Position numbers and translations under genes: made by a program | In this document: positions 15,376-47,687 of the stretch, piece by piece | Numbering within the stretch: the first letter of the stretch is position 1 | Layout of the letters: each line of letters opens with the position of its first letter | Notes under the pieces: model-generated | What the model was told of the DNA's origin: nothing | Database searches by the model: none | Seen by the model: only the letters and a program-made list of their open reading frames with translations | Source of the DNA: Escherichia phage ph0011 | Sequence record: OP557969.1 | Strand: one strand, 5' to 3' | Length of the DNA: 64,000 nt

Positions 15376-15389
15376 ATAACGGGACAACA

Positions 15390-15506
<117 letters not shown>

Positions 15507-15511
15507 AAAAG

Positions 15512-15585
15512 ACGGGGTATAGCACAATTGGATAGTGCAAGAGAATTCTAATCTCTAGGTTGGGGGTTCAAGTCCCTCTACCTCG
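15512..15585 (+). tRNA. tRNA-Arg (anticodon TCT)
   Basis: acceptor CGGGGTA/TACCTCG (one G-U), D stem GCAC/GTGC, anticodon stem AGAGA/TCTCT loop ATTCTAA, T arm GGGGG-TTCAAGT-CCCTC. Confidence 0.7.
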
Positions 15586-15610
15586 GCCTACTTTAATTAA
15601 AGGTTAAACC

Positions 15611-15775
15611 ATGACGCATGAAGAATGGATGAATGACATTAATTTTAGATATGCAGGTATCGGTAACTGGAGAAAGTATCATTGGGAAATCATATCAGAC
15701 CCAGCAGAATACGATAAACTTATGAATCATGAAGTGTATCCGTGGTTCTTTATTGAAATAATGGTACGATTATGA
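15611..15775 (+). CDS. MTHxEW small-protein family member
   Basis: MTHEEWMNDINFRYAGIGNWRKYHWEI...; ATGA overlap. Confidence 0.45.
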   Translation: MTHEEWMNDINFRYAGIGNWRKYHWEIISDPAEYDKLMNHEVYPWFFIEIMVRL

Positions 15776-15932
15776 CACATGAAGAATGGATGAATGACAT
15801 TAATTTTAGATATTCGGGTATCGGTAAATGGCTAAAGTATCATTGGGAATTCATTTCAGAGCCACATCTGTATGATAAACTTATCAACGATTCTGCATAT
15901 AAAATGTACTTAATTGAACTACTGGTACGAAT

Positions 15933-15936
<4 letters not shown>
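15772..15936 (+). CDS. MTHxEW small-protein family member
   Basis: MTHEEWMNDINFRYSGIGKWLKYHWEF... Confidence 0.45.
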
Positions 15937-16105
<169 letters not shown>

Positions 16106-16108
16106 AAG

Positions 16109-16553
<445 letters not shown>

Positions 16554-16581
16554 GTATCTTAATAACAGAAGGTATATTGAA

Positions 16582-16821
16582 ATGAGTAAGTATTTTGTGA
16601 GTTATAGTTATAATGTATCACGAAAGATTCCACGTGGTGACGGAATGGGATGGTCTTATGATGCATATACTTTAAATGAGTCATGTATCATCGAATTAAA
16701 AGAAAAAGACCTTGACATTTTAAAAATCAAACAATATATTCTTGATGTTGAATTGGCACATCGTACTGATATCTATCCAGATGTAAATAACATCAGCATC
16801 TTAGTACTAACCAAAGTATAA
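16582..16821 (+). CDS. hypothetical protein
   Basis: start MSKYFVSY after AAGG. Confidence 0.45.
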   Translation: MSKYFVSYSYNVSRKIPRGDGMGWSYDAYTLNESCIIELKEKDLDILKIKQYILDVELAHRTDIYPDVNNISILVLTKV

Positions 16822-16827
16822 GATAAA

Positions 16828-16861
<34 letters not shown>

Positions 16862-17215
16862 GAATTCCACAATCAGACGTATATGGTGTAAGTTACGTCG
16901 ATGCAATCCAGAACAAGATCTCTGGTACTCTAGGAAGTGGTTAATGTTAACCTAGACGGGTTTGATAATTGGACGATAGGCAATTATTACTTGACTAGCA
17001 GGTTTAAACTAGAGGTGACTATCCTTCACCAAACTGGAAAACCGGATGGACTTTTATTTAAAAGGGTAAGGCGTGGAAATATGTTTACAGTAGTTGCTTT
17101 TAGTAGCCTGTACGCCCCACGTCAAGGTAGCCGAAAGGCAAGTTAAAACGGGTGGTTATAAAGCTGAATTAACAGCGGCGTTTAAAAGCGTCACCATCCA
17201 TTTTTTTTAATTAAA
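16862..17215 (+). ncRNA. candidate structured stable RNA(s), unclassified
   Basis: ~350 nt directly downstream of an early promoter, ending in a T-run, with no RBS-associated ORF and locally higher GC; sits in the tRNA cluster. Confidence 0.35.
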
Positions 17216-17224
17216 GTTGGTGAT

Positions 17225-17863
<639 letters not shown>

Positions 17864-17882
17864 CTTTTTAATTTAAAAGTAC

Positions 17883-17910
17883 TTTACTGTAGTGTTTAGT
17901 ACCGTATAAT
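17883..17910 (+). promoter_or_regulatory. candidate early promoter
   Basis: TTTACT-N16-TATAAT. Confidence 0.45.
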
Positions 17911-17936
17911 GTAAACAAAAGGATAAAATAAAACTC

Positions 17937-18461
<525 letters not shown>

Positions 18462-18483
18462 TTAAAAAATCAGTACTTTATTA

Positions 18484-18697
<214 letters not shown>

Positions 18698-18720
18698 TCA
18701 TTGCACTCTTCTCTTGTAAT

Positions 18721-18868
<148 letters not shown>

Positions 18869-18889
18869 TTCACATGATATAGGGTACAC

Positions 18890-19147
<258 letters not shown>

Positions 19148-19163
19148 ATAAAAAGAACGAAAA

Positions 19164-19205
<42 letters not shown>

Positions 19206-19215
19206 GATTCCCGAT

Positions 19216-19342
<127 letters not shown>

Positions 19343-19361
19343 AGAGGTACTTCGAGTATGC

Positions 19362-19417
<56 letters not shown>

Positions 19418-19436
19418 AACTACTTTTTAATTGACG

Positions 19437-19487
<51 letters not shown>

Positions 19488-19504
19488 TACAACCGACAAT
19501 GACT

Positions 19505-19571
<67 letters not shown>

Positions 19572-19746
19572 GAAGAAACTGCTAAACAGCTTGAAGAACT
19601 TTGTAGTGCTGCACCGATGCCGACTCTTGGCTTAATCAAGTTGATGCGTCGAAATAAGAAAAATTTAAAATAATACAGTAAGATGGCCTCCCCTCCATAT
19701 CATGAGAGTATAGAGACTTGTTGGTTATCTTACTTTTAAACAAACT

Positions 19747-19820
19747 GCCTCAATAGCAAAATTGGTAATGCACACGTTTTGTAAGCGTGAGATTTTTCCG
19801 TTCGAGTCGGAATTGGGGCA
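19747..19820 (+). tRNA. candidate tRNA-Thr (anticodon TGT)
   Basis: acceptor GCCTCAA/TTGGGGC (one U-G), anticodon stem CACGT/GCGTG loop TTTGTAA, T arm TTCCG-TTCGAGT-CGGAA; 6-nt variable loop is atypical. Confidence 0.5.
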
Positions 19821-19837
19821 CAAAATAAAGGCACACT

Positions 19838-26145: not shown

Positions 26146-26606
26146 TGATACTACTAGTATTATTATCAAGCCCGTTTGCTTATTTTATTCTGTATAATAT
26201 TTTTAGTAATGCTCATCATTTTAAATACGCACAAACAATTGCAAAACATGAAGGATGGTGGCATTATTTTCCAGCACTACTGTGTTCATATATGTTCAAT
26301 GAACGCTATTTTATTTTTCCAGAATATACAAAGCACTATTATGATACTAAAATAAATGGCATAATTGAGTACTGTCTACGTAATTATCTGAATAATACAG
26401 ATAATGTTAAAGTGAATTTATTAAATGGAAATTCACCAAGAATAGTCTGTACGTCTTACATAGAAGACCCCATTTACTTATATCTATATGATCATAGTAT
26501 TTCGGTTCGTTGTTCTATGCGTAGTAGTTGTGAGTACTTTATCTTACCACCTACACAAATAAGATTAATAGAAAAATACTTGAAATTGATTGACAAAAAA
26601 GATTAG
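26145..26606 (+). CDS. hypothetical protein
   Basis: ORF 153 aa. Confidence 0.4.
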   Translation: MILLVLLSSPFAYFILYNIFSNAHHFKYAQTIAKHEGWWHYFPALLCSYMFNERYFIFPEYTKHYYDTKINGIIEYCLRNYLNNTDNVKVNLLNGNSPRIVCTSYIEDPIYLYLYDHSISVRCSMRSSCEYFILPPTQIRLIEKYLKLIDKKD

Positions 26607-26650
26607 TAGTGTTATAATCACAAGACCAACCGATAAAAGAGGAACTGAAA

Positions 26651-27533: not shown

Positions 27534-27955
27534 GAGTATATAATAAAATTTGTATTTTTGTATTTTTAGTTTGTGCGTTCAATTCCTTTGGTTATTACTG
27601 CAACGAAAACAATATTTCATATGGATTAAATCCTTTGTGGTTTTCAATTTCAAATGTAGTTCAAATTGGTATTGCTATTATGTCTGCCCTTATGTTCTGT
27701 CCAATTGTCACAATGGATACTGATCATGAAAGGCTTGGATTTATCCGTGATACTGGTGACGAACCTTACAGTAGATTGATTGTGTTGTATCCATTTGTTG
27801 TTATATTAGGTACTAATATCCAACTTGGGTCTTTATCTAATAGTATTACTTCAGCAGCCATTACCATCTTTGCATTCACATTTTTTATTGTACACAAATC
27901 AGTACTTAAATGGTATATCACCCAATTGGCAGAGAAGGGTACGGAAATCAGTTGA
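27530..27955 (+). CDS. multi-pass membrane protein
   Basis: 141 aa, hydrophobic. Confidence 0.45.
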   Translation: MRVYNKICIFVFLVCAFNSFGYYCNENNISYGLNPLWFSISNVVQIGIAIMSALMFCPIVTMDTDHERLGFIRDTGDEPYSRLIVLYPFVVILGTNIQLGSLSNSITSAAITIFAFTFFIVHKSVLKWYITQLAEKGTEIS

Positions 27956-28014
27956 CGTGATGTATCGAGTCATATATAATTATTACATCAAAACGATCAA
28001 ATGGTAAGGAACTT

Positions 28015-29029: not shown

Positions 29030-29527
29030 ATGACAACAGTTTACATTGATAAACGATTAAATTTATTGATTACTGATTCTAGAGTTACATTAACCATACC
29101 ACGAAACTTATTTGGTATTTTCCCACTAAAACCAAAATATCAATATGGAGTTGTTAATCAAAAAACTTTATATGTACATGACCGTTTATTCAGTGCTAGT
29201 GGGGCAATAAGTGAAATTGATAAAGTACTGAATTGGTTAATTAACAAAGAACCTGTTATACCGCATAAAAAACTAGGTTGTCATTGTGTTCTACTATCCA
29301 AAGATTATATCATTCACATGAATATATCTAATGGTAAGTTCACTAAGAAACTTCAATATCTTCATAAAGACTATACTTTCTTTATGGGAAGTGGTGGAGA
29401 GTATATGGTAGATGCAGCAATACATGAAGACACTACGACTTTATGTAATAAAGTTTTTAGTACATTCATGGACGTTCATAACCATGATTCTTTTACCGAT
29501 AGCAATATTAATGTGTATAAATTTTAA
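29030..29527 (+). CDS. hypothetical protein
   Basis: ORF 165 aa. Confidence 0.45.
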   Translation: MTTVYIDKRLNLLITDSRVTLTIPRNLFGIFPLKPKYQYGVVNQKTLYVHDRLFSASGAISEIDKVLNWLINKEPVIPHKKLGCHCVLLSKDYIIHMNISNGKFTKKLQYLHKDYTFFMGSGGEYMVDAAIHEDTTTLCNKVFSTFMDVHNHDSFTDSNINVYKF

Positions 29528-29548
29528 TTTCGTCAATAGGAGAAGTAG

Positions 29549-30514
29549 GTGAAAAAACTTGATTTGAATACAATTGCAGATGAAGTTCTGGATGAATGCT
29601 TTGGTAATGAAGAAGTGAATACGCTGGATGCGTTAGAACCAGTTCAAGAAAAAGATAACATTGACGAGAAAAATAATGGTAATTTCAAGTTTAATATTAG
29701 TCTTAAGCGACCAGCAAATGTAACAAATGAAGATATTATTCGTGATATTCAAGCAGGTATTAACGTAAAGAAAAATACTGAACTATTAGTTCGTTATAAT
29801 TACGGCTTGATTATTGATGTTGCAAGTAAATGCACGTGTTATATTCCATTTGAAGATAAGATTTCATATGGTATCGAGGGATTCATGCGAGCATTAAAAA
29901 CATTTGACCTTAGTAAGAATGTAAAGTTCGCTACGTATGCATCGTCAAGTATCTATATGACTGTATACAATGAAAGTTCAGATGCTAATCATCTGGTCCA
30001 TTTCCCTCGTTACATGAGTGTTAATAAGATACAAGTGAAACGCTTCTGTCATAATTATGAGCGTCAGCATGGTTGCCGTCCTACACCAGAAATTATTTCT
30101 GAAGAGACTGGTATTGAAATCCAGCACGTTAAGAATTGTTTATTATTCCAAAGTGAATATACTTCACTGGATGCACCATTGGATGGTGTTTCTGATGGGA
30201 CGATGAGTGATATTCTGCATTCATCTGAAGGTGATTATAATCTTAATGTTGACAGTATTCGTGCACCGTTGCGTTATACCATCAACGAACTAACTAATGA
30301 GTTGAGTGCTAAGGAATGTGAGATTATTCAACGTGTTCATGGGTTAGGTGAATTTAATCCTGAAACACTACGTGAAATTGCTGATAGTGGTTTTATCGAT
30401 GACAACGGTAAGTGTGTAAAATCCAGATCTTCGGTTCATCGTAAATACAGTGATGCTCTTAAGAAACTCAAGAAATTAGTGCTTGCTAAAGGGTACGAAT
30501 ACGAAGATTTCTAA
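29549..30514 (+). CDS. sigma-70 family RNA polymerase sigma factor
   Basis: GTG start after AGGAG; region 2-like LVRYNYGLIIDVASK, GIEGFMRALKTFD...KFATYA; region 4-like C-terminal TLREIADSG...KYSDALKKLKKL. Confidence 0.7.
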   Translation: MKKLDLNTIADEVLDECFGNEEVNTLDALEPVQEKDNIDEKNNGNFKFNISLKRPANVTNEDIIRDIQAGINVKKNTELLVRYNYGLIIDVASKCTCYIPFEDKISYGIEGFMRALKTFDLSKNVKFATYASSSIYMTVYNESSDANHLVHFPRYMSVNKIQVKRFCHNYERQHGCRPTPEIISEETGIEIQHVKNCLLFQSEYTSLDAPLDGVSDGTMSDILHSSEGDYNLNVDSIRAPLRYTINELTNELSAKECEIIQRVHGLGEFNPETLREIADSGFIDDNGKCVKSRSSVHRKYSDALKKLKKLVLAKGYEYEDF

Positions 30515-30520
30515 ATTGTA

Positions 30521-30547
30521 AAGGTTGGCATATGCCAACCTTTTTTA
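30521..30547 (+). terminator. rho-independent terminator
   Basis: AAGGTTGGCATATGCCAACCTTTTTT. Confidence 0.65.
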
Positions 30548-31194
30548 TTGGGACAAAGCATAAATATATGATATAATAATTATGTACAATCCTGTTGAAT
30601 GCAGAAATGCATATAAATTAGAACCTGATCCTATCGAAAACGTAGATGGCAGATGAGCAGTTCAGCAGTGCGATGAGCAGAAGAAACCCGTCAGAAGTGG
30701 GCATAGTTTGAACCCCTCACGGCAATGCGGCTCAATAAAGAACTCCGATAAGCATACAGAGAGTTCCTAGATAGACATATAAGGAATCACACCTTACCAG
30801 ATTTGCTAAGGGAGTCTTGAAATAAGACAGCTTGAACTTTGATTGTATAGAGTTTCAAGTGAGTGCTGGGATGAAAAGACCAGTGACCGTTGCATATGAC
30901 CGTGATAGGGAGAAACAGAGCAACCCGCTTCCGTTTGTGATTGATCATTTTTACAATATAGATCCGTCCAAAATTCACGATACAATAATATCCGATGCCA
31001 TCAGCGTCAAGAAGAGACTTAATTGTCTCTTTTTTATTACTTTCATTCCCCTGTGGGGGATGAAATAGTCCTCAACAAATCCCGTCAAGTATTAAAAGTC
31101 CTAGACAGTTATGAAACATTCGCGTATAATACGTAGTATTAGAAGCGAACAGACATCTCGAAGAGATGGATGATTAACTATTAAGGAATATCCA
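30548..31194 (+). other. GC-elevated noncoding island, candidate large structured RNA or decayed foreign gene
   Basis: ~650 bp without a credible ORF; composition clearly less AT-rich than flanks; internal hairpin TTCATTCCCCTGTGGGGGATGAA. Confidence 0.3.
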
Positions 31195-31632: not shown

Positions 31633-32421
31633 ATGTGCACTATAGATGAATTAATTAGACGGAATTCAAAATACTACAAACCATCAGAAATTGTAGGCAA
31701 CATTACTAAATCAGAGTTCGGACCAAATACACGAAAACTCATTCATGTAATGTTACGTGATGGCTTTAAATGTGATTGTTGTGGTGAATCCAATGTGGTA
31801 TTCACTTTACATAAGCACAGTACTAAAGAACGTTATAAATTCAGACCTTATGTACTTAAAGGGAAACGCCTTGTACGCATGACGTTAGACCATAATGTAC
31901 TGGACTGTCTTCAGGGTGGTAATGACAAAGAAAACATGACTGCACTGTGTGAGGATTGCAATGCATTACGCCAGCATAAATTTGCTGAGTACAGTGAGTT
32001 TAAGTTCTGGTATCATAACGCAGATCGTTCCATTGAACCTGACGTTAACTACTGCTTTATTGAGTACATTAAGAATGCAAAAGATACATACATTCTTAAA
32101 TCAATGTCACCTATTACAGTGTTTCCTGAGAATCTATTCACTACATTAAAGAATAGTTTTATGGTAGGTGATATTGATGCATTCAAGTATTTTGACAAAG
32201 GTGCAAAACATTTTGAAGTTCAATGTCTTAGTACTGCACTATGTGAACTTATTAAAATTTACATAAAAGATTATTTGGGTATTGACAATGTACGCGTACC
32301 AGAGTATACTTTTTCTATTGATTTCGATTGTGAATCAATCAAAGAGTTTGGGATTCTTTTCAATAAACAAATAGAACTTGCAATTCAAAACGAAATCAAG
32401 TACTATAATACTAACATTTAA
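31633..32421 (+). CDS. HNH endonuclease domain protein
   Basis: CDCCGES...HKH...LDHNVLDCLQGGNDKENMTALCEDCNALRQH. Confidence 0.6.
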   Translation: MCTIDELIRRNSKYYKPSEIVGNITKSEFGPNTRKLIHVMLRDGFKCDCCGESNVVFTLHKHSTKERYKFRPYVLKGKRLVRMTLDHNVLDCLQGGNDKENMTALCEDCNALRQHKFAEYSEFKFWYHNADRSIEPDVNYCFIEYIKNAKDTYILKSMSPITVFPENLFTTLKNSFMVGDIDAFKYFDKGAKHFEVQCLSTALCELIKIYIKDYLGIDNVRVPEYTFSIDFDCESIKEFGILFNKQIELAIQNEIKYYNTNI

Positions 32422-38464: not shown

Positions 38465-38656
38465 ATGTTGATTTATCAATGTGACGGTATTCGTGTTCTA
38501 CAACATCCTTATCTTCAAATCTTTCATGTTCAGATGTTTATGGAAGGTGATAATCCGAGAACTTATGAACGCACATATGATTATTTCACGGTCAAAGAGT
38601 GCGACAATATCGATGAAGTACGACGATTAGTACATGAACTCCAAAACAAAGGTTGA
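38465..38656 (+). CDS. small hypothetical protein
   Basis: 63 aa; stop codon lies inside the PeSL-like element. Confidence 0.4.
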   Translation: MLIYQCDGIRVLQHPYLQIFHVQMFMEGDNPRTYERTYDYFTVKECDNIDEVRRLVHELQNKG

Positions 38657-38682
38657 CTTCGGTCAGCCTTTTTTGTTATAAT
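38649..38682 (+). promoter_or_regulatory. PeSL-like terminator-promoter module (copy 1)
   Basis: AGGTTGACTTCGGTCAGCCTTTTTT hairpin with UUCG loop containing TTGACT, then TATAAT 18 nt downstream. Confidence 0.7.
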
Positions 38683-38711
38683 TATTTTATATTCTAATGG
38701 AGTTTAAAATT

Positions 38712-39152
38712 ATGTTAGTATATCGTTTTGAACTTAAATTTAGTTACATTGAACCTGATTTGAAACCAGCAACAAATGTTGGTCCATTTGCACGGTATTC
38801 TTCAAAATACAGTACTAAAAATGGTTTTGACCGTTTGTATATGTCTACGCCTACTCAGTTCCAACCTGAACCAACTGATGATGGAATCTATTCAATCAAA
38901 TATGGATGGGCATTTGGCTGTCAAAGTTTGAATGATTTGTTTCGGTTCTTTACTATGGACTTGGGAAAATTACATCGTGCTGGGTTTGCTATTTCCGTAT
39001 ATGACGTACCTGATAATCATGTGGATATTGGTCGTAATCAGGTTCAGTACTATTGCGGTAGTGCAATATTGGTTCGTATCATGTCAGTTAAGGATGCAAA
39101 GGTGGTGAACCGTCAAAGTAAAAGAGTAATACATGAGGTTCTATATGGATAA
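38712..39152 (+). CDS. hypothetical protein
   Basis: start MLVYRFELKF after GGAG. Confidence 0.45.
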   Translation: MLVYRFELKFSYIEPDLKPATNVGPFARYSSKYSTKNGFDRLYMSTPTQFQPEPTDDGIYSIKYGWAFGCQSLNDLFRFFTMDLGKLHRAGFAISVYDVPDNHVDIGRNQVQYYCGSAILVRIMSVKDAKVVNRQSKRVIHEVLYG

Positions 39153-39489
39153 GACACAAATAGAATTGAAAAAATTTGTATCATTTTATCTACCAAATGA
39201 TCCACGTATGTCACAAAAAGATTTGGAATATTATAATATCCTAAGTAAACAGCTAATGAGAAAGTTTCAACAGTGTTTAAGTATATTCAATACTGATGGT
39301 AGACGTAGATACCGAATCATTTCAATGAATGATGAAAACGCAAACTACTTTGATTATGATGTTGTTTTTAGAGCATATAATGATGACCGAATTAAATTAA
39401 ATTATGATCAAATAATATTTGATCTAAGTGCTATATCTGTTATAATTACTCACATCGCCGAGATTAATGGTTTTAAAGAGTGGTATTGA
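39145..39489 (+). CDS. hypothetical protein
   Basis: start MDKTQIELKK. Confidence 0.4.
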   Translation: MDKTQIELKKFVSFYLPNDPRMSQKDLEYYNILSKQLMRKFQQCLSIFNTDGRRRYRIISMNDENANYFDYDVVFRAYNDDRIKLNYDQIIFDLSAISVIITHIAEINGFKEWY

Positions 39490-39503
39490 ATAGAGGACAA
39501 TAT

Positions 39504-39770
39504 ATGAAGCTTAAATTGCAATATAATGGATTTACTTTACGTAATGATACTGAGTTTGTCAATCGTTCACCTGGTGCTGAACTTTTTTTGCGAGAGATGA
39601 ACATTCCTTTCATTATCACTACTGTAGGGGATCGTGAAGTTTTACAATACGCAGAACATCCTATTATTGATGTTCCTTGGTACTCTGAACATATGTACAT
39701 GGATATGGCACGTCGCTACAACTGTAAGTTCATAGTAGAAGGTGATAAAATTACAGTACAATTTAAATGA
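39504..39770 (+). CDS. hypothetical protein
   Basis: start MKLKLQYNG after AGAGGA. Confidence 0.45.
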   Translation: MKLKLQYNGFTLRNDTEFVNRSPGAELFLREMNIPFIITTVGDREVLQYAEHPIIDVPWYSEHMYMDMARRYNCKFIVEGDKITVQFK

Positions 39771-39823
39771 TCATTTAAGCATCATTGCAAATGTAGAAAT
39801 GGTGTACATGAAGTATAATATAA

Positions 39824-39855
39824 AAAGGGAAATCATATATGGCTTCCCCTTTTTC
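39824..39855 (+). terminator. candidate rho-independent terminator
   Basis: AAAGGGAAATCATATATGGCTTCCCCTTTTTC. Confidence 0.45.
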
Positions 39856-39896
39856 TTATTACGTACAATTAAGTACATATATTAATTGGGGAAATT

Positions 39897-40469
39897 ATGA
39901 ATCGTAAAGGTCGTTTTAAGGTATCAAAGAAGAACAAAAGTTCTAGATTTAAGCCTATAGTTTTAACCGTTAAAGCCAAAGCGGAATTAACTGCACTTAG
40001 TAAAAAGATTATTTCATCTAAGATCAAAATATCATATATAAATTCAGTAAAATATCATAATGTCAAACCACGAGATCAACTTATTTCACTCATATTTAAA
40101 CGTAATGATTTTGAGATATCAGTGGATGATTATAGAGCCTATAATGCTGGTTTCATTAATGTTATTTGTACTACAGAACTAACTGAATTAGAACATTTGT
40201 CATGTATAGTAAATCTCGATAAAGGTGTAGTGAAATACCACTTTGTACATTTTACTAATATTAATGATGGAAAGGGTGTACAATCCAGAACTATAGTACC
40301 TACATGTGATGTGACTAAATTATCAAAGCTCAATGACGAAGAATATTTTCAAGAAAGTACTGTAACTGAATATATAGATGAAATTATAGCAACTTACAAA
40401 GAATGTATATGGGTTTTAAATGCAATGAAGCCTAAATTATGTTTGATGAATATTGTACGTGATTTATGA
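39897..40469 (+). CDS. EExFFQxST motif family protein
   Basis: motif DEEYFQESTVTEYIDE. Confidence 0.55.
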   Translation: MNRKGRFKVSKKNKSSRFKPIVLTVKAKAELTALSKKIISSKIKISYINSVKYHNVKPRDQLISLIFKRNDFEISVDDYRAYNAGFINVICTTELTELEHLSCIVNLDKGVVKYHFVHFTNINDGKGVQSRTIVPTCDVTKLSKLNDEEYFQESTVTEYIDEIIATYKECIWVLNAMKPKLCLMNIVRDL

Positions 40470-40482
40470 ATAAGGAATTGAA

Positions 40483-40926
40483 ATGTGTTGGGTAAATGTA
40501 AACAGTATTGAACTTAATGAAAAAGATATTTTTGCATTTGTAAATTTAACAAATAATACAGTTCTAAAAGGTCGATTGTTCAGTTCCAGTACTGGTGAAA
40601 AATGGATTTCATTGATGAATGATTGTGGTGAGATTTATAATGTGATGTCTTTACCACAATGGGTCTATAGTAACACTGCGGATGATGTTCTTGCAGCAGT
40701 TATGCGTGAGTTTGAAAAACTTCCCGGTGGTGATATCAAAAACAAAGTTTTTAATGCCGAGCGTAAAAATTATACAGCACAACAATTAGAATCACTCGCT
40801 ATTGCTGCATATCAAGCTGCTATTAAGAAGCCCGAATGTGTTATTCTTAAGTATATTCCAGACTTAAAACTCACGTTGGAAGATATGGACGCATTCATTT
40901 TTACATCTGAACTGGACCAGTACTGA
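40483..40926 (+). CDS. hypothetical protein
   Basis: ORF 147 aa. Confidence 0.5.
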   Translation: MCWVNVNSIELNEKDIFAFVNLTNNTVLKGRLFSSSTGEKWISLMNDCGEIYNVMSLPQWVYSNTADDVLAAVMREFEKLPGGDIKNKVFNAERKNYTAQQLESLAIAAYQAAIKKPECVILKYIPDLKLTLEDMDAFIFTSELDQY

Positions 40927-41039
40927 TTTAACTTTGGGACAAACCTTCCTATAATGATATAATTTTTTTGTCAGTTTATTTAAATGACATATGAAATATA
41001 AATATTATTGTAAAGTTTATCTCTTATAGGAGTTATAAA

Positions 41040-41423
41040 ATGGTTGATAAATGGAATAAGAAAGAACCATCTCATGATGTGGATATTTCTGACCTAGATA
41101 ATGAACATAAACACAAGTACCTAGATTCACTAGGTCTACTAAAGCCGGACCAAAGTATTGCACATGATCGTCCTTCACGTGAAAAAGCATTCAGTCTGGA
41201 ATCTCTAGGTCATGAGCTAAATCGTGTGTTTGAAGAACACCCAATCTATGTACGTGATATTATTGAGAAACTTAAAGTAACTCCTAAAGAGCACTTTAAA
41301 GCAACTGTACACTCTGCATTCAATGCATTACATGAAGCACTTAAGAAAACTCACAACCTTCGTAAGATTCATGATGATATTGTAAATGCAATTGAAAGTG
41401 AAAAACATAAATTCAAGAAGTAA
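41040..41423 (+). CDS. charged hypothetical protein, paralog of 41489..42760
   Basis: shares KYLDSLGLLKP and LKVTPKEHFKA-type motifs with next gene. Confidence 0.5.
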   Translation: MVDKWNKKEPSHDVDISDLDNEHKHKYLDSLGLLKPDQSIAHDRPSREKAFSLESLGHELNRVFEEHPIYVRDIIEKLKVTPKEHFKATVHSAFNALHEALKKTHNLRKIHDDIVNAIESEKHKFKK

Positions 41424-41431
41424 TAGAAAAG

Positions 41432-41466
41432 AGGTTGACTTCGGTCAGCCTTTTTTATATATTATA
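41432..41466 (+). promoter_or_regulatory. PeSL-like terminator-promoter module (copy 2)
   Basis: GAGGTTGACTTCGGTCAGCCTTTTTT + TATATT/TATAAA. Confidence 0.65.
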
Positions 41467-41488
41467 AATATAGTCATAGAGAAAAAAC

Positions 41489-42760
41489 ATGAAATCTATG
41501 GAGAGAAATCAAATGCCAAGTAATTTTACTGATAAAAATGGTGGTAACATGGCAGGTCACTCGGATAAATGGAGTGAACGCAACCGCCGCCCAAATAGTT
41601 ACCAAGCAGGTCAAGGTTCCCGTGGCTCCAGAAACCAAGGAACTGGTCTAGCTGGTAAAGCAAATGCTGAACCAGGTGAAGTTAAAAGTACTGAGAACAT
41701 GACTGAGCTAGAAAAGCTACGTTATGTTAATTCATTAGGACTTCTTAATGCTACACAAAAACAACGTCTAGCTGATATGGAACGCGAAGAAAAAGAAAAA
41801 ACGACTGCTAAAGAAGAACCAAAACAGGAAGCACCGAAGCCGTCTAATCCTGTCAAAGAACTGTCTGATAAGTTAGGTAAGATCTTTGCAAATAAACCCC
41901 AACTTATTCAAGGTATTGTCAAAGAATTGCAATCTGTACCTAAAGAAGAATTAAAAGTCAAAGCACAAGCTGTTCTGGATGCAATGAAAGGAAATACCAG
42001 CACTGAGCCAACTGAAGTGTTCAGCACTATTATGCGTGCACTGGAAGGTAAACAACAAGGTGAAGAACGTGGTGATGAAGTAAGTCTTGAACGTGTTCTT
42101 AAAACATTTGATAGTATTGGGAAAGAAGACCGTGTTAATGCACAACAGGTTAAAAATGTACTAGCAAAATTGGAAAACCGTCTAGAAGGTAAAGATGATA
42201 AGATTAAATTGGTATCTGATGCAGTTGACAATGCACTTAAATCTTATGTACAAGGTGAAAAGAGTCGTTTTGTGACCGCGATGGATGTAGCATTCAATAC
42301 AATGAAAAAGTATGAAGCTGACCATGGTGAGAAGGTTACACCTGATGGTTATCTGATGCGTGATGATGAAGAAGGTGCAGTAGAACAGAATGATGTTCAT
42401 TCTGACGAAGATATTGATGATATGGAAGCTGAACTGTCACAAGATCGCCAAATGACTGAAAAATCACACAACGAACTAAAGAAATTAATGCAGTGGGTCG
42501 CTGATGTTGGAGAAAAAGCGGGTGCTGATAAGAAAAGTATAAACCGAAATCTTAGTTGGATTAAAGATAAAGTAGGTAACAACGCTCGTAAACTACAAAA
42601 AGCATGGACTGATGTAGTGAATGGTGCAGTAGATATTGACGTTGAATCTGGTGAAGCATATGATTATGCATTGACTACACTTGATGATTCTTTTCGTGAC
42701 TACGAAAAAGGAAACGTAACTCCTTGGGAAAAGGACATAATGAGCAAATACGGCAAATGA
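41489..42760 (+). CDS. large K/E-rich hypothetical protein
   Basis: 423 aa; LRYVNSLGLLNATQ, ELQSVPKEELKVKAQ motifs. Confidence 0.55.
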   Translation: MKSMERNQMPSNFTDKNGGNMAGHSDKWSERNRRPNSYQAGQGSRGSRNQGTGLAGKANAEPGEVKSTENMTELEKLRYVNSLGLLNATQKQRLADMEREEKEKTTAKEEPKQEAPKPSNPVKELSDKLGKIFANKPQLIQGIVKELQSVPKEELKVKAQAVLDAMKGNTSTEPTEVFSTIMRALEGKQQGEERGDEVSLERVLKTFDSIGKEDRVNAQQVKNVLAKLENRLEGKDDKIKLVSDAVDNALKSYVQGEKSRFVTAMDVAFNTMKKYEADHGEKVTPDGYLMRDDEEGAVEQNDVHSDEDIDDMEAELSQDRQMTEKSHNELKKLMQWVADVGEKAGADKKSINRNLSWIKDKVGNNARKLQKAWTDVVNGAVDIDVESGEAYDYALTTLDDSFRDYEKGNVTPWEKDIMSKYGK

Positions 42761-42768
42761 TAACAAAA

Positions 42769-42801
42769 AGGTTGACTTCGGTCAGCCTTTTTTGTTATGA
42801 T
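42769..42801 (+). promoter_or_regulatory. PeSL-like terminator-promoter module (copy 3)
   Basis: AAGGTTGACTTCGGTCAGCCTTTTTT + TATGAT. Confidence 0.65.
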
Positions 42802-42829
42802 GGTGCTATCCACTATTGAGGCCAGAGAG

Positions 42830-43453
42830 ATGACCAAGCAAGAAATATTCAAAACTTTAATTGATATATTACGTCCATCTAAATTACGGTGTGCAATGGA
42901 GTTTGATATTCCTTATGCTGAACAGGTAATCTTTCCACAAGTGAAATCAGCAGGACTTACGTTGCTTGGTATGGGAATGTACTCTGTTGTAGTTGAACAT
43001 GAAAACTATCCTGGGCGAGCATTTAAAGTGACAACATCACGCTGGGATGGCTTTCGTGCATATGCAAAGTACTGCATTGAAAACGCAGGAACTAAATTTC
43101 TTCCTGTTATATACAGTGCAAATGAGCAAGGAAACTTCGGCTGGTATGAGATGGATAAGTATTACCCTATAATTAAACAAAAAAATAATTACGATGATTT
43201 TGTGAGTACTAAAATTGGTGATTTATATTCGTATGCACATGCTGGACAGTATGCTTCATCACTATCTACTATGTGTGGTAGCCCAGAAGAAATTGCTATT
43301 GCAACAGTTGTTGCGAACATAATGAAAGAGTTTCATGGTCGTTTTGTACCAGACATTCATTCCAGAAATGTAATGATGGACAAAGATGGCAACGTATACA
43401 TCACAGATCCTATTTCATGTGATGTACGGCGAGAAATACCAATCACACAATAA
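42830..43453 (+). CDS. hypothetical protein
   Basis: start MTKQEIFK, downstream of the module -10 (track ATG 42797 lies inside the -10). Confidence 0.45.
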   Translation: MTKQEIFKTLIDILRPSKLRCAMEFDIPYAEQVIFPQVKSAGLTLLGMGMYSVVVEHENYPGRAFKVTTSRWDGFRAYAKYCIENAGTKFLPVIYSANEQGNFGWYEMDKYYPIIKQKNNYDDFVSTKIGDLYSYAHAGQYASSLSTMCGSPEEIAIATVVANIMKEFHGRFVPDIHSRNVMMDKDGNVYITDPISCDVRREIPITQ

Positions 43454-43467
43454 GACCCAGTTTTTTG

Positions 43468-43496
43468 TTGACAGAACTTTAATACTGTTATATTAT
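43468..43496 (+). promoter_or_regulatory. candidate promoter
   Basis: TTGACA ... TATATT/TATTAT. Confidence 0.4.
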
Positions 43497-43534
43497 TTAA
43501 AAATGATAAACGAATTACATCTAAGGGTAAAATC

Positions 43535-43816
43535 ATGCGTTCATTTGAAAACTTAATCGGAAAAAACCGTTTAGCAGAAATTGAAGCAGATGTAAAAGAA
43601 TTGTCACAATCAAAAAGTTATATTCACTTAGATGAACTTTTTATTAAGTACGGTGAAATTGGATTTAAGACGTTATTTGTTTTTACTTTTAAAGTTCACA
43701 GTTTAAAGTACTTCGATTTAAGTTATAAAAATGGTCAACCGAATCTATATCATATGTATTATCTCAAGAATATAGAAGAGGCTCATTCCTTATTTTCTGA
43801 ATATCTGAAGGTATAA
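43535..43816 (+). CDS. hypothetical protein
   Basis: ORF 93 aa. Confidence 0.45.
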   Translation: MRSFENLIGKNRLAEIEADVKELSQSKSYIHLDELFIKYGEIGFKTLFVFTFKVHSLKYFDLSYKNGQPNLYHMYYLKNIEEAHSLFSEYLKV

Positions 43817-43817
43817 A

Positions 43818-44156
43818 ATGGAACAATATTTTGAATTAATTAATAAAGTGTCATTCTATGTAGTGTCATTGACGTGGGTTTATTTCATGTTTTGCTACAT
43901 TATTGCATTCTTCCGATATACTACTTTATATGAACGTATCTATTATGATGCACCAATTTCATTCTTGGTGTTCTGTGCATGTACGTGGGGAATATTAGAA
44001 GTACTGATATGTGGATATAGAACTGATGAATTAAATCTGGTATCGGTATTGACTGGGTTATCACTTGGTGTTATGATATCTTTCTTTCCAGTATGGTTGT
44101 TCTTTGAACTGATCCATCGCATTGATGTATGGCGTTCTAATATCCCTGAAAAATAA
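43818..44156 (+). CDS. small membrane protein family A, member 1
   Basis: TM-rich; C-terminal IHRIDVWRSNIPEK. Confidence 0.5.
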   Translation: MEQYFELINKVSFYVVSLTWVYFMFCYIIAFFRYTTLYERIYYDAPISFLVFCACTWGILEVLICGYRTDELNLVSVLTGLSLGVMISFFPVWLFFELIHRIDVWRSNIPEK

Positions 44157-44159
44157 GGA

Positions 44160-44507
44160 TTGATAATGATTTTCTACACTAATTCGTTTGCTTATGCTAT
44201 TGCATCAATCTACATTGTGTACTTCTTATTTGGTGGAGTACTGTACTTCTTTAAGTACAAAACATTGTTTAACAGAATGTATCCAAATCACCCAATTGTA
44301 GTAGTACTTTTGATAATTTCTGTTGCTCATATCATTGTAGAAACAATAATGGGTATCAGTGCAGTACATTACAGTCTAGGTACTATTGTAATTATTACTA
44401 TGATCATAGCATACATTTTAGTAATGGGTTCTGGTTTATTTGGGAATGTAGCAATGAAAATGTATAATCGAATCAAAACATTACGTGATAATCTACCGGA
44501 GCGTTGA
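44160..44507 (+). CDS. small membrane protein family A, member 2
   Basis: C-terminal KTLRDNLPER. Confidence 0.5.
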   Translation: MIMIFYTNSFAYAIASIYIVYFLFGGVLYFFKYKTLFNRMYPNHPIVVVLLIISVAHIIVETIMGISAVHYSLGTIVIITMIIAYILVMGSGLFGNVAMKMYNRIKTLRDNLPER

Positions 44508-44508
44508 G

Positions 44509-44853
44509 TTGTATAATTTAAATTTAATATCATATATCATAACAACAATGTTTACTTTCTATGCCTTTGTTGGTATAATCCTACTGTACTTTAAATTTTA
44601 TAAAGTCTTTGACCGTTTATTTCCATCATTGGAACATGAATTCTTATTGGTGATGTACATCTGTTTAACGTGTATGTCTACATTTTTCACTGTATTTGAT
44701 GGTATCATTGGTATTAAAGCTGAATATCCAAATGGAAGTACACTTGTTGCCTTTATACTGGTAGGATTCTTCGGTACTTATATCACTTTCATTTCAACAT
44801 GGTCTGTGGTTGATTATCTCATTAGATTACGAAATAAAATGCCAAATCGATAG
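44509..44853 (+). CDS. small membrane protein family A, member 3
   Basis: C-terminal IRLRNKMPNR; start uncertain (TTG 44509 after GGAG, or ATG 44548). Confidence 0.4.
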   Translation: MYNLNLISYIITTMFTFYAFVGIILLYFKFYKVFDRLFPSLEHEFLLVMYICLTCMSTFFTVFDGIIGIKAEYPNGSTLVAFILVGFFGTYITFISTWSVVDYLIRLRNKMPNR

Positions 44854-44862
44854 GGGATTGCT

Positions 44863-45120
44863 ATGTTTGCATTGCGTAATAAAAATACAAAAGAGATTCT
44901 ATGTATCTCAGCAGTATGGGATTGTGCAGGAAGTGAAATGATCCTCGAAGAAGGTTCAGGTGATTGTGTTTATGTTGTTCAGGATCGTCGTGAACTTGAA
45001 TCATTACTTGATGAATTTAATGCTGGTGGTAATCCTAAAAGTACTGAATTCCCTGTGATTATTAATCCAGCATCACCTGGTTCTTATGAAATTCTACAAC
45101 TGTGGGAGATGGATAAGTAA
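44863..45120 (+). CDS. hypothetical protein
   Basis: ORF 85 aa. Confidence 0.45.
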   Translation: MFALRNKNTKEILCISAVWDCAGSEMILEEGSGDCVYVVQDRRELESLLDEFNAGGNPKSTEFPVIINPASPGSYEILQLWEMDK

Positions 45121-45500
45121 TGCGTCAAATGTACAAAGTAACCGAGCTAAACAAGCGTCTGATTAAACAATCAATGTTCGAGGACAAAGAGTCTTATTAT
45201 AACTTTAAACGTGCTGTAGAGGCTGCTATCCATATCCAGAAGCTTAAAGATAGTGGTTGTATTATTCTCGAAAATGGTTCTGATGTTGTAACGGATGACT
45301 TTAGTGTAGCGTTTGATGTTTCACCAGATGGCACACTATCAATGCCACGATTAGGAACTGGAAACATGACTGTTTGGGTCGGCTTCACTATGGGTAATGT
45401 ACCAGACACGGTGTATGTAGATGATATTGAGTTGAAAGAAAGCTTCAAAAACTTATCTTATCTTGAACCACAATACGCACATGAAATGAATTTATTTTGA
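45120..45500 (+). CDS. hypothetical protein
   Basis: ORF 126 aa. Confidence 0.45.
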   Translation: MRQMYKVTELNKRLIKQSMFEDKESYYNFKRAVEAAIHIQKLKDSGCIILENGSDVVTDDFSVAFDVSPDGTLSMPRLGTGNMTVWVGFTMGNVPDTVYVDDIELKESFKNLSYLEPQYAHEMNLF

Positions 45501-45501
45501 G

Positions 45502-45529
45502 TTGACAAACAGATTTAGTACTGTATAAT
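45502..45529 (+). promoter_or_regulatory. early promoter
   Basis: TTGACAAACAGATTTAGTACTGTATAATG. Confidence 0.65.
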
Positions 45530-45576
45530 GTTTACCAACGGGATGAATTTCCCATCCCTACTATCGAGGAATTACC

Positions 45577-46131
45577 ATGATTACTTTTAAGAAAACAGCT
45601 AACCATATCCATGAAATTTACATTAACGGTCATAAAGCTGGGCTTCTTCGCTTACTGGCACATCATCCTAATGTAGACGTATCTGATAATGAACCTAAAG
45701 ATTGGCGTGTCTTTTTCTTTGGAAAGTACAGTGATTTTCAAGTATCAAATCTGAAGAATATTCGTTCAGTATGCACGTTAACTGAAATTAAAGAAAAGTT
45801 AGCAGAAGCACTGAAAACCAATCCAAATGGAATCCTTCCTCCTGATAACTTTGTAGATAAAGGTTATGCTTTAGCTCATTTCAAAGATGGTACTATTCAA
45901 TCTATTAGTACTGAATATGAATATCACTGGACTGAGTACTTCACTTATGGCTCACCTAATACATTGATGGCTTCACGTAGTAAATTGGAAGAAGTACTGA
46001 CGCGTATTAATGAACGCGAGCGTCAGTTCTATGACAAACCAGAAATGTGGAGTTCAACTTACATTGACCGTATTGACTATGTTATTATGACTCCAATCTT
46101 TAACACTGCTTACTATGATTCTTTGAAATAA
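45577..46131 (+). CDS. hypothetical protein
   Basis: ORF 184 aa. Confidence 0.5.
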   Translation: MITFKKTANHIHEIYINGHKAGLLRLLAHHPNVDVSDNEPKDWRVFFFGKYSDFQVSNLKNIRSVCTLTEIKEKLAEALKTNPNGILPPDNFVDKGYALAHFKDGTIQSISTEYEYHWTEYFTYGSPNTLMASRSKLEEVLTRINERERQFYDKPEMWSSTYIDRIDYVIMTPIFNTAYYDSLK

Positions 46132-46142
46132 GGATAACTTAT

Positions 46143-46319
46143 ATGAAACTACGTACTCGTAATCGCCTGATGGATGCACTGTATCATGAACAGTATTCAT
46201 TAAATGAAGTAAAGCGTCAGCTAATGTATACATATCAGTTACCAGCCCGTACTGCGAAACAGCGTGCTAAAGAATTACTGAAAGAAGCTATCGAGTACTG
46301 GGAATCCGATTCGTATTAA
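46143..46319 (+). CDS. small basic hypothetical protein
   Basis: 58-aa ORF read from sequence (MKLRTRNRLMDALYHE...). Confidence 0.35.
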   Translation: MKLRTRNRLMDALYHEQYSLNEVKRQLMYTYQLPARTAKQRAKELLKEAIEYWESDSY

Positions 46320-46358
46320 TATTACGTGATATGTCACATTAATTAAGTGAGACGATAA

Positions 46359-46610
46359 ATGAAAATTTTATTAGTTCTAATACTACTAATTGTTTTACCA
46401 TTTACTTTAGTATCTCCTGAACTTGCATGGAATGTGTTTGTGTACTTGGTATGTACTATTGCGGTAAATGGTATCTTGTTCTTAGTTCTATTCATAAATG
46501 GAATAGGACACGGTGGTGGATGGACCAGTACTGCTAATATTGTACATAAAACCACTATGTCTTTATTTGTAGTGTGGAATTTATTCTGGACTTGGTTTGT
46601 GTTCTTCTAA
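46359..46610 (+). CDS. small membrane protein
   Basis: 83 aa. Confidence 0.45.
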   Translation: MKILLVLILLIVLPFTLVSPELAWNVFVYLVCTIAVNGILFLVLFINGIGHGGGWTSTANIVHKTTMSLFVVWNLFWTWFVFF

Positions 46611-46618
46611 TTAAAAAT

Positions 46619-46990
46619 ATGAATATAGATTTGAAAGGTTCAACACGAACTGTTATCCTTATTGGTGATTATGCTATTAAGATTCCAACCTTTAAAAGTT
46701 GGAAGTTATTCCTAACTGGAATGATAGCGAACCTCAATGAACGTTCATGGATGCAGTACTCCAATCGTAGTGATAGTGGAATATCCCCTACGCTGTGGTC
46801 CTCTCGTACTGGTTTAATAACAGTACAGAAACGTTGTAAACCTGTACAACATAGGGGTTTATTTTGGGTTGAGTTGTGTGCGTTGGCATCAAAATCAGAG
46901 TTGAATACTGACTTCTTCTATTCAGATGCGAAGCCAGAAAACTTTGGGTATCTGTGTGGTAAGTTGGTTAAACTTGATTATGGAGATTAA
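46619..46990 (+). CDS. hypothetical protein
   Basis: start MNIDLKGSTR. Confidence 0.4.
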   Translation: MNIDLKGSTRTVILIGDYAIKIPTFKSWKLFLTGMIANLNERSWMQYSNRSDSGISPTLWSSRTGLITVQKRCKPVQHRGLFWVELCALASKSELNTDFFYSDAKPENFGYLCGKLVKLDYGD

Positions 46991-46991
46991 T

Positions 46992-47261
46992 ATGTACGCA
47001 TTGTATAATAAAGAAAAGAAACGATTTGCTAAGGTTGAAATTTCGATTGATACATTTGACATGTTGGAGTACTGTATTGTAACGGATTTATATGCTAACT
47101 TGTATTACGTTCTTGATGACGTATCAGTACTGCAACGATTGCTTGAGAATTCCAAAAGTCAATGCCAGGGCATCTATGATGGTTCATCTTATGAAACACC
47201 TGAGTGTTCCTACGGCTATCTGGACGGGTATGAGATTGTAAAGTTGGGGATTGTTGAATAA
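46992..47261 (+). CDS. hypothetical protein
   Basis: start MYALYNKEKK. Confidence 0.4.
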   Translation: MYALYNKEKKRFAKVEISIDTFDMLEYCIVTDLYANLYYVLDDVSVLQRLLENSKSQCQGIYDGSSYETPECSYGYLDGYEIVKLGIVE

Positions 47262-47273
47262 ATTGATTAAACA

Positions 47274-47687
47274 ATGAAGAAGTGTATCGCATGTAATATT
47301 GAAAAAGACATTAGTGAATTTGGTATAAGAAAAGATACTGGGAAACATAGAAATACATGCAAAGGTTGTAGTAATATTACCAGTAAGAAAACCAGAAATA
47401 AAAAAACTGATGTCAAAAAGCTTGAAGAAATCAAAAGAAAAAATAAAGATTTCATGACCAGAGTTAAATCATTTTATGGATGTAGTATTTGTGCGATGAA
47501 GTATCCAGAATGTTTAGACTTTCACCATCTTGACCCTAATACTAAAGAACATACACCAAGTTCTATGTTCAGTAAAAGTCGAGATGCTATCAAAGATGAA
47601 ATTCGAAAGTGTATGATTCTTTGTTCTAATCATCATCGCATGGTCCATTCTGGAAGACTATGTTTAATTGAAAGAAAAAAGGGTTGA
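47274..47687 (+). CDS. HNH endonuclease with zinc ribbons
   Basis: CIACN...CKGC; CSICAMKYPECLDFHHLDPNTKEH...CMILCSNHHRMVH. Confidence 0.65.
   Translation: MKKCIACNIEKDISEFGIRKDTGKHRNTCKGCSNITSKKTRNKKTDVKKLEEIKRKNKDFMTRVKSFYGCSICAMKYPECLDFHHLDPNTKEHTPSSMFSKSRDAIKDEIRKCMILCSNHHRMVHSGRLCLIERKKG

Follow-up and report, generated by a model that had tools for sequence, protein, structure and literature searches.

A stretch of 64,000 nucleotides (nt) from Escherichia phage ph0011 (sequence record OP557969.1), called the window below, carries on its plus strand a gene for a sigma factor of the sigma-70 family. An earlier note, made from the letters alone, had proposed such a factor here and had drawn from it that a distinct promoter class should exist elsewhere in the genome. 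Its coordinates for the open reading frame (ORF) are exact, and the peptide strings it quoted (LVRYNYGLIIDVASK; GIEGFMRALKTFD...KFATYA; TLREIADSG...KYSDALKKLKKL) are all found in the translation. The gene and the signals around it, where class E denotes promoters of the sigma70-consensus type, are as follows.

26590–26618: class E promoter TTGACA-N17-TATAAT, 12 of 12 consensus bases, further upstream of the sigma operon.
27952–27980, plus strand: class E promoter TTGACG-N17-TATAAT, opening the five-gene block that ends in the sigma gene.
29536–29540, plus strand: ribosome-binding site AGGAG, read from the sequence, 8 nt 5′ of the GTG.
29549–30514, plus strand: sigma-70-family sigma factor gene, 321 amino acids plus stop, GTG start.
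30520–30549, plus strand: intrinsic terminator of the sigma operon, with a 10-bp stem, a 4-nt loop and a T-run, 6 bases past the stop; hairpin and T-run occupy 30520–30543.

The GTG start stands because the next in-frame Met would cost half of region 2; 18 orthologues share the start residue. The sigma gene appears to lie in an early-type region, last of five genes behind sigma70-consensus promoters whose use we infer. The related phage 121Q has an orthologue of the 27952 site, TTGACA-N17-TATAAT at 87695, 40 nt 5′ of gp163, and in phage UE-S1 a terminator is annotated at the position equivalent to the one at 30520. The authors of the CBB genome placed the orthologue CBB_513, with regions 2, 3 and 4, in a presumed early region (PMC5259590).

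The product is a bona fide sigma-70-family protein. Pfam finds Sigma70_r3 (PF04539) at residues 162–228 with E=3.5e-10 and 40.3 bits (cutoff 25.3), and Sigma70_r2 (PF04542) at residues 80–141 with E=1e-5 and 25.7 bits (cutoff 24). NCBIfam ranks RpoD_Cterm first (E=5.7e-24), then RpoS, and a phmmer search against the PDB returns RpoD, SigA, SigB and RpoS chains with E as low as 7.9e-16. The AlphaFold2 model has a mean predicted local distance difference test score (pLDDT) of 70.7; sigma2, sigma3 and sigma4 are confident, and the acidic N-terminus and the linkers are low. Foldseek matches this model to sigmaS and sigma70/SigA chains of RNA polymerase (RNAP) holoenzymes, with about 250–265 columns aligned, among them sigmaS 5ipl_F with E=7.7e-12 and a probability of 1.0. 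The architecture is sigma2-sigma3-sigma4 and resembles that of a group 2 or group 3 sigma; region 1.1 and the non-conserved region are absent, and region 1.2 is vestigial.

One profile result speaks against this assignment. The earlier note had rested its case on regions 2 and 4; the former is confirmed by Pfam, while the latter is recognised by alignment and structure and falls below the Pfam threshold. Sigma70_r4 (PF04545) reaches 16.5 bits, under the cutoff of 24.1, in a match broken into two stretches. The low score arises because a family-specific beta-hairpin insertion splits the helix-turn-helix (HTH); among members of the phage sigma family there are no precomputed PF04545 matches. In the AlphaFold2 model, region 4 comprises the helices 254–264, 274–279 and 293–314 (pLDDT 71–87), with the beta-hairpin inserted at 282–290. 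Past the insertion the alignment to regions 4.1–4.2 of RpoD and RpoS resumes, and the equivalent of R584 and the ALKKL motif are retained.

The protein belongs to a discrete phage family. PHROG 351 ('RNA polymerase sigma factor') matches it end to end with E=3e-53 and is the sole PHROG matched by the ORF; no T4 gp55-type profile match was obtained in the PHROG search. Both marks of the PHROG 351/RaK2-like family are present, the HTH insertion with invariant G281, D284 and G287 and the N-terminal MKKLDLN..F18. In a profile search the members of this family reach 356 bits or more, while bacterial sigmas come no nearer than 114 bits. The equivalog cutoffs for RpoD (RpoD_Cterm, 85 bits against 354; PRK05658, 59.5 against 555) and for RpoS (TIGR02394, 70.1 bits against 378.7) are far from reached. 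The domains of the protein map onto the window as follows.

29549–29716, plus strand: N-terminal acidic region, residues 1–56, with pLDDT below 50 for residues 17–47.
29717–29989, plus strand: sigma domain 2, residues ~57–147, regions 1.2–2.4.
30008–30232, plus strand: sigma domain 3, residues ~154–228, regions 3.0–3.2; Y155 and V158 stand where sigma70 has H455 and E458.
30266–30493, plus strand: sigma domain 4, residues ~240–315, regions 4.1–4.2.
30380–30421, plus strand: family-specific insertion DSGFIDDNGKCVKS, residues 278–291, in the turn of the region 4.2 HTH, a predicted beta-hairpin.
30422–30448, plus strand: recognition helix SRSSVHRKY, equivalent to sigma70 583–591, with the R584 equivalent retained.

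Nineteen orthologues with identity down to 29% were put on the E. coli sigma70 numbering. The scaffold and pocket residues N383, D403, F419, D/E420, F427, T429, Y430, A431, P453, G564 and R/K584 are retained. The residues that we take, from the sigma70 literature, to be base readers are replaced: Q437 by M, T440 by Y (in 18 of the 19) and R441 by N in region 2.4, H455 by Y and E458 by V in region 3.0, and E585 by S, R586 by S, R588 by H and Q589 by R in the recognition helix. The W433/W434 dyad is S, T or A in 19/19. The insertion in the HTH turn is 9–10 residues long, and its G281, D284 and G287 are invariant in the 19 orthologues. From the altered base readers and the HTH insertion, a promoter specificity unlike that of host sigma70 is therefore predicted, at least at the -35 position.

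The N-terminal helix, MKKLDLNxIxDEVLDECF, is conserved in all clades with L6 and F18 invariant, and is followed by a disordered acidic linker. This motif may have a region 1.1-like autoinhibitory role or bind a partner. The N-terminus also aligns loosely with that of E. coli RpoS (KVHDLNE...VEVFDEKAL).

These residues bear on two other possible functions. The protein might be a general replacement of the host primary sigma, serving the same TTGACA/TATAAT promoters when sigma70 is inactivated, limiting or targeted by a defence, with no new promoter class. In sequence and structure it comes closest to group 1 and group 2 sigmas (RpoD_Cterm, RpoS), and existing annotations read RpoD or RpoS. Yet almost all base-contacting residues of regions 2.4, 3.0 and 4.2 are replaced and the HTH is split; moreover, the scores stay far under the RpoD and RpoS equivalog cutoffs given above, and clades that have the same class E consensus have diverged rapidly in this protein. 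We regard this replacement as improbable. The protein might otherwise be a competitor that occupies host core RNAP and shuts off host transcription, with no promoter-specific role. Its presumed early expression, an acidic N-terminal region reminiscent of the autoinhibitory region 1.1 and the partial loss of the melting residues would suit such a decoy. But the strong conservation of the recognition helix, of the G/D/G hairpin and of the -11A and -7T pockets, in 19 orthologues down to 29% identity, is unexpected for a pure decoy, and the promoter covariation with the helix described below argues against it as well; this function seems still more improbable.

The window phage is a jumbo phage of the 121Q/UE-S1/RaK2 type, and represents a distinct species-level lineage. 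The window is 86–89% identical in nt to Escherichia phage UE-S1 (Asteriusvirus), and collinear with 121Q, PBECO4 and similar jumbo myophages of ~350 kb. The earlier note had taken the region for the early region of a T4-type genome, where a sigma-70-like factor would be unexpected. This has to be corrected, since the gene is universal in the 121Q/UE-S1/RaK2 group and already annotated. The contrast drawn there with T4 gp55 also does not hold, as the relatives have a gp55-like late sigma as well: 121Q gp591 matches PHROG 12791 with E=2.7e-154 and phrog_234 with E=8e-18, and a Pfam search of gp591 yielded nothing useful.

The sigma gene itself is already known and is a hallmark of the RaK2/121Q-type jumbo phages. 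GenBank WAE77363.1, entered as 'RNA polymerase sigma factor [Escherichia phage ph0011]' and encoded on a contig of 350,346 bp, is 100% identical to the window protein. A tblastn search finds the gene in 88 phage records, most of them already annotated as sigma factor and some naming it RpoD or RpoS; the hosts of the matched jumbo phages are Escherichia, Klebsiella, Salmonella, Erwinia, Yersinia, Serratia, Cronobacter, Pectobacterium and Xanthomonas. Orthologues include 121Q gp167, UE-S1_148, RaK2 ORF244 and CBB_513, and those of PBECO4, phAPEC6 and GAP32. Amino acid identity to the window sigma is 88% in UE-S1, 83% in 121Q and 29–46% in RaK2, Munch, CBB and XaC1. Iyer et al. reported that group 2 jumbo phages have an RpoD-like sigma alongside a minimal one (PMC7824862), and the Sharanji paper named the sigma a hallmark of the RaK2-like group (PMC11895373). 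The fEgEco12 paper listed the sigma as absent in phage Ecwhy_1 (PMC13070987). Ecwhy_1 was considered as a natural knockout and rejected; the DNA is there at 99.8% identity with a length difference of 1 nt, which points to an annotation or frameshift artefact.

Promoters were analysed in the intergenic regions of the whole 121Q genome, whose sigma is the 83% identical one, and in the window. Three classes were recognised. Class E combines TTGACA-N16-18-TATAAT with an A-rich upstream element; 121Q has 32 exact matches, against 0.85 in shuffles, clustered in arrays of small early genes, including 5′ of the sigma operon. Class M is [G/T][G/A]GACA-N13-TGnTATAAT (GGGACA type). Strict matches number 16 in 121Q against 0.05 expected from 40 dinucleotide shuffles, all on the coding strand, and 3 in the window against 0 expected. 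The spacer in 121Q is N13 in 16 sites and N12 or N14 in 2, and the TG is near-obligatory (16 sites with it, 3 without). When intergenic TGnTATAAT alone is used as the anchor, a GGGACA-type hexamer precedes about 20 of 38 sites; for intergenic TATAAT lacking the TG the count is 0/106. The distinct promoter class that the earlier note had anticipated thus exists in 121Q and in the window. The three strict sites of the window are the following.

15381–15408, plus strand: class M promoter GGGACA-N13-TGaTATAAT, leading the tRNA cluster, with its end 10 nt 5′ of tRNA-Ser (15419); 121Q orthologue at 73453.
30550–30577, plus strand: class M promoter GGGACA-N13-TGaTATAAT, directly past the sigma terminator; orthologues at 121Q 90268 and fEgEco12 L009:2524.
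40936–40963, plus strand: class M promoter GGGACA-N13-TGaTATAAT, upstream of ORF 41040–41423; 121Q orthologue at 101440, before gp199.

The genes behind class M in 121Q include two copies of the single-stranded DNA-binding protein gene, gp11, primase, exonuclease, topoisomerase II and the DNA-polymerase block. Further targets are the DprA/ThyA block, ClpP- and ClpA-like genes, a nudix hydrolase, the tRNA cluster and four noncoding loci. One class M promoter stands 57 nt upstream of gp591, the gp55-like gene. The same wiring, a promoter of this type before the gp55-like gene, is found at CBB Porf_244 (PMC5259590). A 'divergent RpoD-like' promoter, with one copy before the gp55-like gene, had been remarked on by the authors of CBB and GAP32, and Table S6 of CBB gives T-G(A/G)AAC(G/A)-N13-TGnTATAAT, the same architecture as class M with another hexamer (PMC5259590).

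Class L is the T4-late-type TATAAATA. It is depleted in the 121Q genome (17 against 67 expected) and in the window (4 against 15), as would be expected if spurious gp55-type late promoters were selected against. In 121Q, 11/17 occurrences are intergenic, 19–55 nt before the genes for scaffold, major capsid, baseplate and other structural proteins. In the window a TATAAATA motif lies between the class M promoter at 40936 and ORF 41040–41423. An 8-mer enrichment search of the 121Q intergenic regions gave no further over-represented promoter class suited as the sigma's target.

Class M was then compared between clades, using the orthologous promoter of the gp55-like gene together with 50-kb replication blocks of Munch, RaK2 and XaC1. 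The -35 hexamers and the recognition helices of the corresponding sigmas are listed below.

121Q and the window: -35 of GGGACA type (23 and 4 sites); helix SRSSVHRKY.
Munch: -35 of GGGACA type (8 sites); helix SRTSLHRCY.
RaK2: -35 of TGAACA type (8 sites); helix VRGTLHYKF.
CBB and Yen9-04: -35 G(A/G)AACG (18 sites, from the CBB paper); helix SKATLSRRY.
XaC1: -35 GAAAC(A/G) (7 sites), -10 TATACT; helix SKPTLSRRY.

Each clade keeps its own hexamer, and cross-matches of hexamers between clades are nearly nil. The -35 hexamer is lineage-specific and tracks the recognition helix of the sigma, in a correlation over several positions that was drawn post hoc. Munch is instructive here: its sigma is 45% identical to that of CBB and 37% to that of 121Q overall, and yet it has the R...H helix and GGGACA in common with 121Q. 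In XaC1 the -10 of class M differs too: TATACT is found in 9/9 sites with TTC replacing TGn, unlike the other intergenic -10 boxes of XaC1. A one-residue code that pairs H at the R588 position with G as the third base of the hexamer, and S with A, agreed with 121Q, Munch, CBB, Yen9-04 and XaC1; it was rejected on RaK2, where H goes with TGAACA. Between clades the sigma70-like factor is 29–46% identical and the gp55-like sigma 68–78%, and the faster divergence of the former fits co-evolution with its own promoters. In PA5oct, where tblastn detected no homologue of the phage sigma, the gp55-like gene has a host-type TTGACT-N17-TAAAAT promoter.

Region 4.2 of sigma70 is essentially the same in E. 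coli, Salmonella, Klebsiella and Pectobacterium. The lineage-specific hexamers therefore imply a phage-encoded reader, for which the sigma is the obvious candidate. Several points weigh against this reading. The covariation comes from five lineages only, and the pairing of residues with bases was made post hoc. The phage sigma is without the TG-reading residues of sigma70 (H455 and E458, here Y and V) and the W-dyad, so that its use of TGnTATAAT is assumed. The core-binding residues L402, Q406, E407 and N409 of region 2.2 (sigma70 numbering) are not conserved. It is possible that another co-evolving DNA-binding protein of the phage is the reader. In the literature on this family and its relatives we found no expression, binding or transcription data for any member; that the sigma binds core RNAP, when it is expressed and that it, rather than another phage factor, reads class M is what we infer from the comparisons above.

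An alternative is that host sigma70 reads class M as an extended -10; a phage factor of another kind, acting like MotA, would bind the hexamer, and the sigma would have its targets elsewhere. TGnTATAAT, near-obligatory in class M, is the textbook extended -10 of sigma70, and a perfect copy could be used by the host factor without a good -35. The loss of the TG-reading residues from the phage sigma also speaks for it, and in CBB and in the Kaldavass clade a gene for an HTH protein adjoins the sigma gene. Against this, tblastn and phmmer --max searches of 121Q and the window with the T4 proteins gave no homologue of AsiA or MotA; 121Q gp502 was looked at as an AsiA, and rejected for having only a borderline N-terminal match (E ~0.05) and no Pfam match. 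The hexamer follows the sigma's recognition helix, in Munch even against the overall phylogeny, the distinct -10 of XaC1 points to a different domain 2 reader too, and the 8-mer enrichment offers no alternative class for the sigma to serve. This is the main rival, and we think it unlikely.

We therefore consider it probable that the phage sigma switches host RNAP to the phage-specific class M, or 'middle', promoters. In this cascade, host sigma70-RNAP would first transcribe the sigma gene, which closes a short operon, from consensus TTGACA/TATAAT promoters, and the product would replace sigma70 on the host core RNAP. The new holoenzyme would then start at [G/T][G/A]GACA-N13-TGnTATAAT. The altered region 4.2 helix and the beta-hairpin insertion would read the non-sigma70 -35 hexamer, and domain 2, with its retained -11A and -7T pockets, would read the TATAAT-like -10. 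Class M would drive the genes of replication and nucleotide metabolism, the tRNA cluster, a multi-copy structured RNA and the gene of the gp55-like late sigma, which in turn would activate the TATAAATA late promoters of the structural genes. The class M targets, among them replication genes, tRNAs and the gp55-like gene, and the placing of TATAAATA before structural genes fit such a cascade of three tiers.

The structured RNA lies immediately downstream of the sigma operon.

30584–31042, plus strand: candidate structured noncoding RNA of ~460 nt, with the class M promoter at 30550–30577 and an intrinsic terminator at 31009–31034.

There is no credible ORF within 30584–31042. The element is conserved at 68–91% nt identity in 69 phage records, with 4–5 copies per genome that are mostly unannotated, and is also found in phages with only ~30% sigma identity. 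A class M promoter precedes 7/7 of the copies examined (the window copy, four in 121Q, and those of CBB and Serratia BF), which for CBB and Serratia BF is the class M promoter of their own clade. From five copies RNAalifold predicts 94 pairs, and compensatory changes support 41 of these. In the copies held out, those of CBB and BF, 85% of the predicted pairs are canonical, against 32–40% with slid partners, and 15–18 double compensatory changes are seen relative to the window copy, whose folding z-score is -3.7. Rfam has no match at the gathering threshold; at E<=1 it returns only the terminator-like STnc390 and a spurious snoRNA.

The element looks like an undescribed structured RNA family of the RaK2-like jumbo phages. 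It might be a regulatory or catalytic RNA, or an origin-associated transcript like those of the T4 middle-promoter R-loop origins. The PA5oct paper describes an abundant noncoding RNA of 451 nt in that related phage (PMC7318152). The region was also considered as a repeat within the window and rejected, being single there with its other copies elsewhere in the genome. Conservation runs past the RNA terminator at 31046–31100, where TTCCCCTG(T/C)GGGGGATGAAA...CCTCAACAAATC(C/T)CGTCA(A)GTAT is common to CBB and Serratia BF; this motif contains a small GC hairpin and stands just before a TAGACA-N17-TATAAT site at 31102–31130.

A bolder form of the cascade can be put forward, tentatively. The phage sigma would be 'programmable', its helix and hairpin reading a lineage-specific -35 (GGGACA, TGAACA, GAAACG) at a fixed N13 from TGnTATAAT by a simple residue-to-base code, in a cascade from host sigma70 through the phage sigma70-like factor to the gp55-like one. 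Its regulon would include the undescribed ~460-nt RNA family, at 4–5 copies per genome across all RaK2-like jumbo phages, with DNA more conserved than most of their proteins. We hold this combined proposal with distinctly less confidence than the cascade itself.

Several other features of the window were noted. The gene directly 5′ of the sigma gene (29030–29527, plus strand; 165 amino acids, starting MTT...) belongs to PHROG 24804, matches the HslV peptidase family weakly (phrog_1040, E=1.4e-4) and is without a Pfam match; it is 'HslV' in the fEgEco12 annotation, and is syntenic with the sigma gene in RaK2. Two to three genes past the sigma gene, ORF 31633–32421 (plus strand, 262 amino acids) is a probable homing endonuclease. 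Its Pfam HNH signature is weak (E ~0.016, under the cutoff), and the annotations of 121Q (gp170) and fEgEco12 have it as an HNH endonuclease.

The cluster behind the class M promoter at 15381 holds 7 tRNA genes at 15419–19821, namely Ser-TGA, Arg-TCT, Ser-GCT, Ser-ACT, Met, Asn and Thr. The tRNA-Ser with the anticodon ACT (A34) is of an unusual kind, which the 121Q annotation has as well. Within the cluster, 15592–15913 is a tandem duplication of 161 nt.

Five terminator-promoter cassettes, at 38642, 42761, 47673, 51077 and 51648 (span 38642–51720), consist of the hairpin GGTTGACTTCGGTCAGCC followed by a T-run and TATAAT. The stem of the hairpin contains a TTGACT -35 box; termination and re-initiation thereby seem to share a single module. 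The same hairpin occurs in 121Q and also in the terminator table of CBB (PMC5259590).

GC skew reverses at ~56 kb. From there, at ~56000–64000 on the minus strand, runs an array of paralogous RCC1-like genes ('regulator of chromosome condensation') between repeated intergenic modules. The RCC1-like paralogues of 121Q each have ...GTATTAAATATAGTATAATGAATAAAGGAGG upstream with no recognisable -35, an element which may be a fourth promoter type.

The sigma finding as first given adds nothing new, the same protein being annotated in GenBank and the factor being a textbook feature of this phage group. The possible value lies in a testable regulatory model, with a middle-promoter consensus for Asteriusvirus, the covariation of the -35 box with the recognition helix across clades, and a gp55-like late sigma wired under class M. 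If true, the model would explain how gene expression is timed in phages of ~350 kb without an RNA polymerase, AsiA or MotA of their own, and it would yield orthogonal sigma/promoter pairs for use in E. coli. The multi-copy structured RNA stands apart from this model and is perhaps of greater interest.

Comparison with known systems places the sigma as follows. The RaK2-like orthologues have the same gene, early-region context, invariant residues and region 4 insertion, with no substantive difference. With E. coli RpoS and RpoD the phage sigma shares the sigma2-sigma3-sigma4 architecture and fold, and the residues N383, D403, F419, F427, T429, Y430, P453, G564 and R584. It differs from them in being without region 1.1 and the non-conserved region, in its vestigial region 1.2, in the change of W433/W434 to S, T or A, in the replacement of the readers of -12, TG and -35, and in the 9–10-residue beta-hairpin in the region 4.2 HTH.

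Bacillus phage SPO1 has the classical cascade of phage sigmas, with gp28 as the middle sigma and gp33/gp34 as the late sigma (cited in PMC13401047). The proposed logic is alike: a host sigma for early genes, a phage sigma on middle promoters with their own -35, and a further phage sigma late. The SPO1 host is of another phylum, and the late factor here is T4 gp55-like and not a second sigma-70-family protein. With the AsiA/MotA system of T4, the present phages share a putative middle class that combines a sigma70-like -10 with a new upstream element, and with T4 in general TATAAATA-like late promoters and a gp55-type factor; the window ORF itself is not gp55-like. T4 remodels sigma70 through AsiA and MotA, of which no homologue was found here; on the model proposed, the new -35 specificity would instead reside in a sigma of its own.

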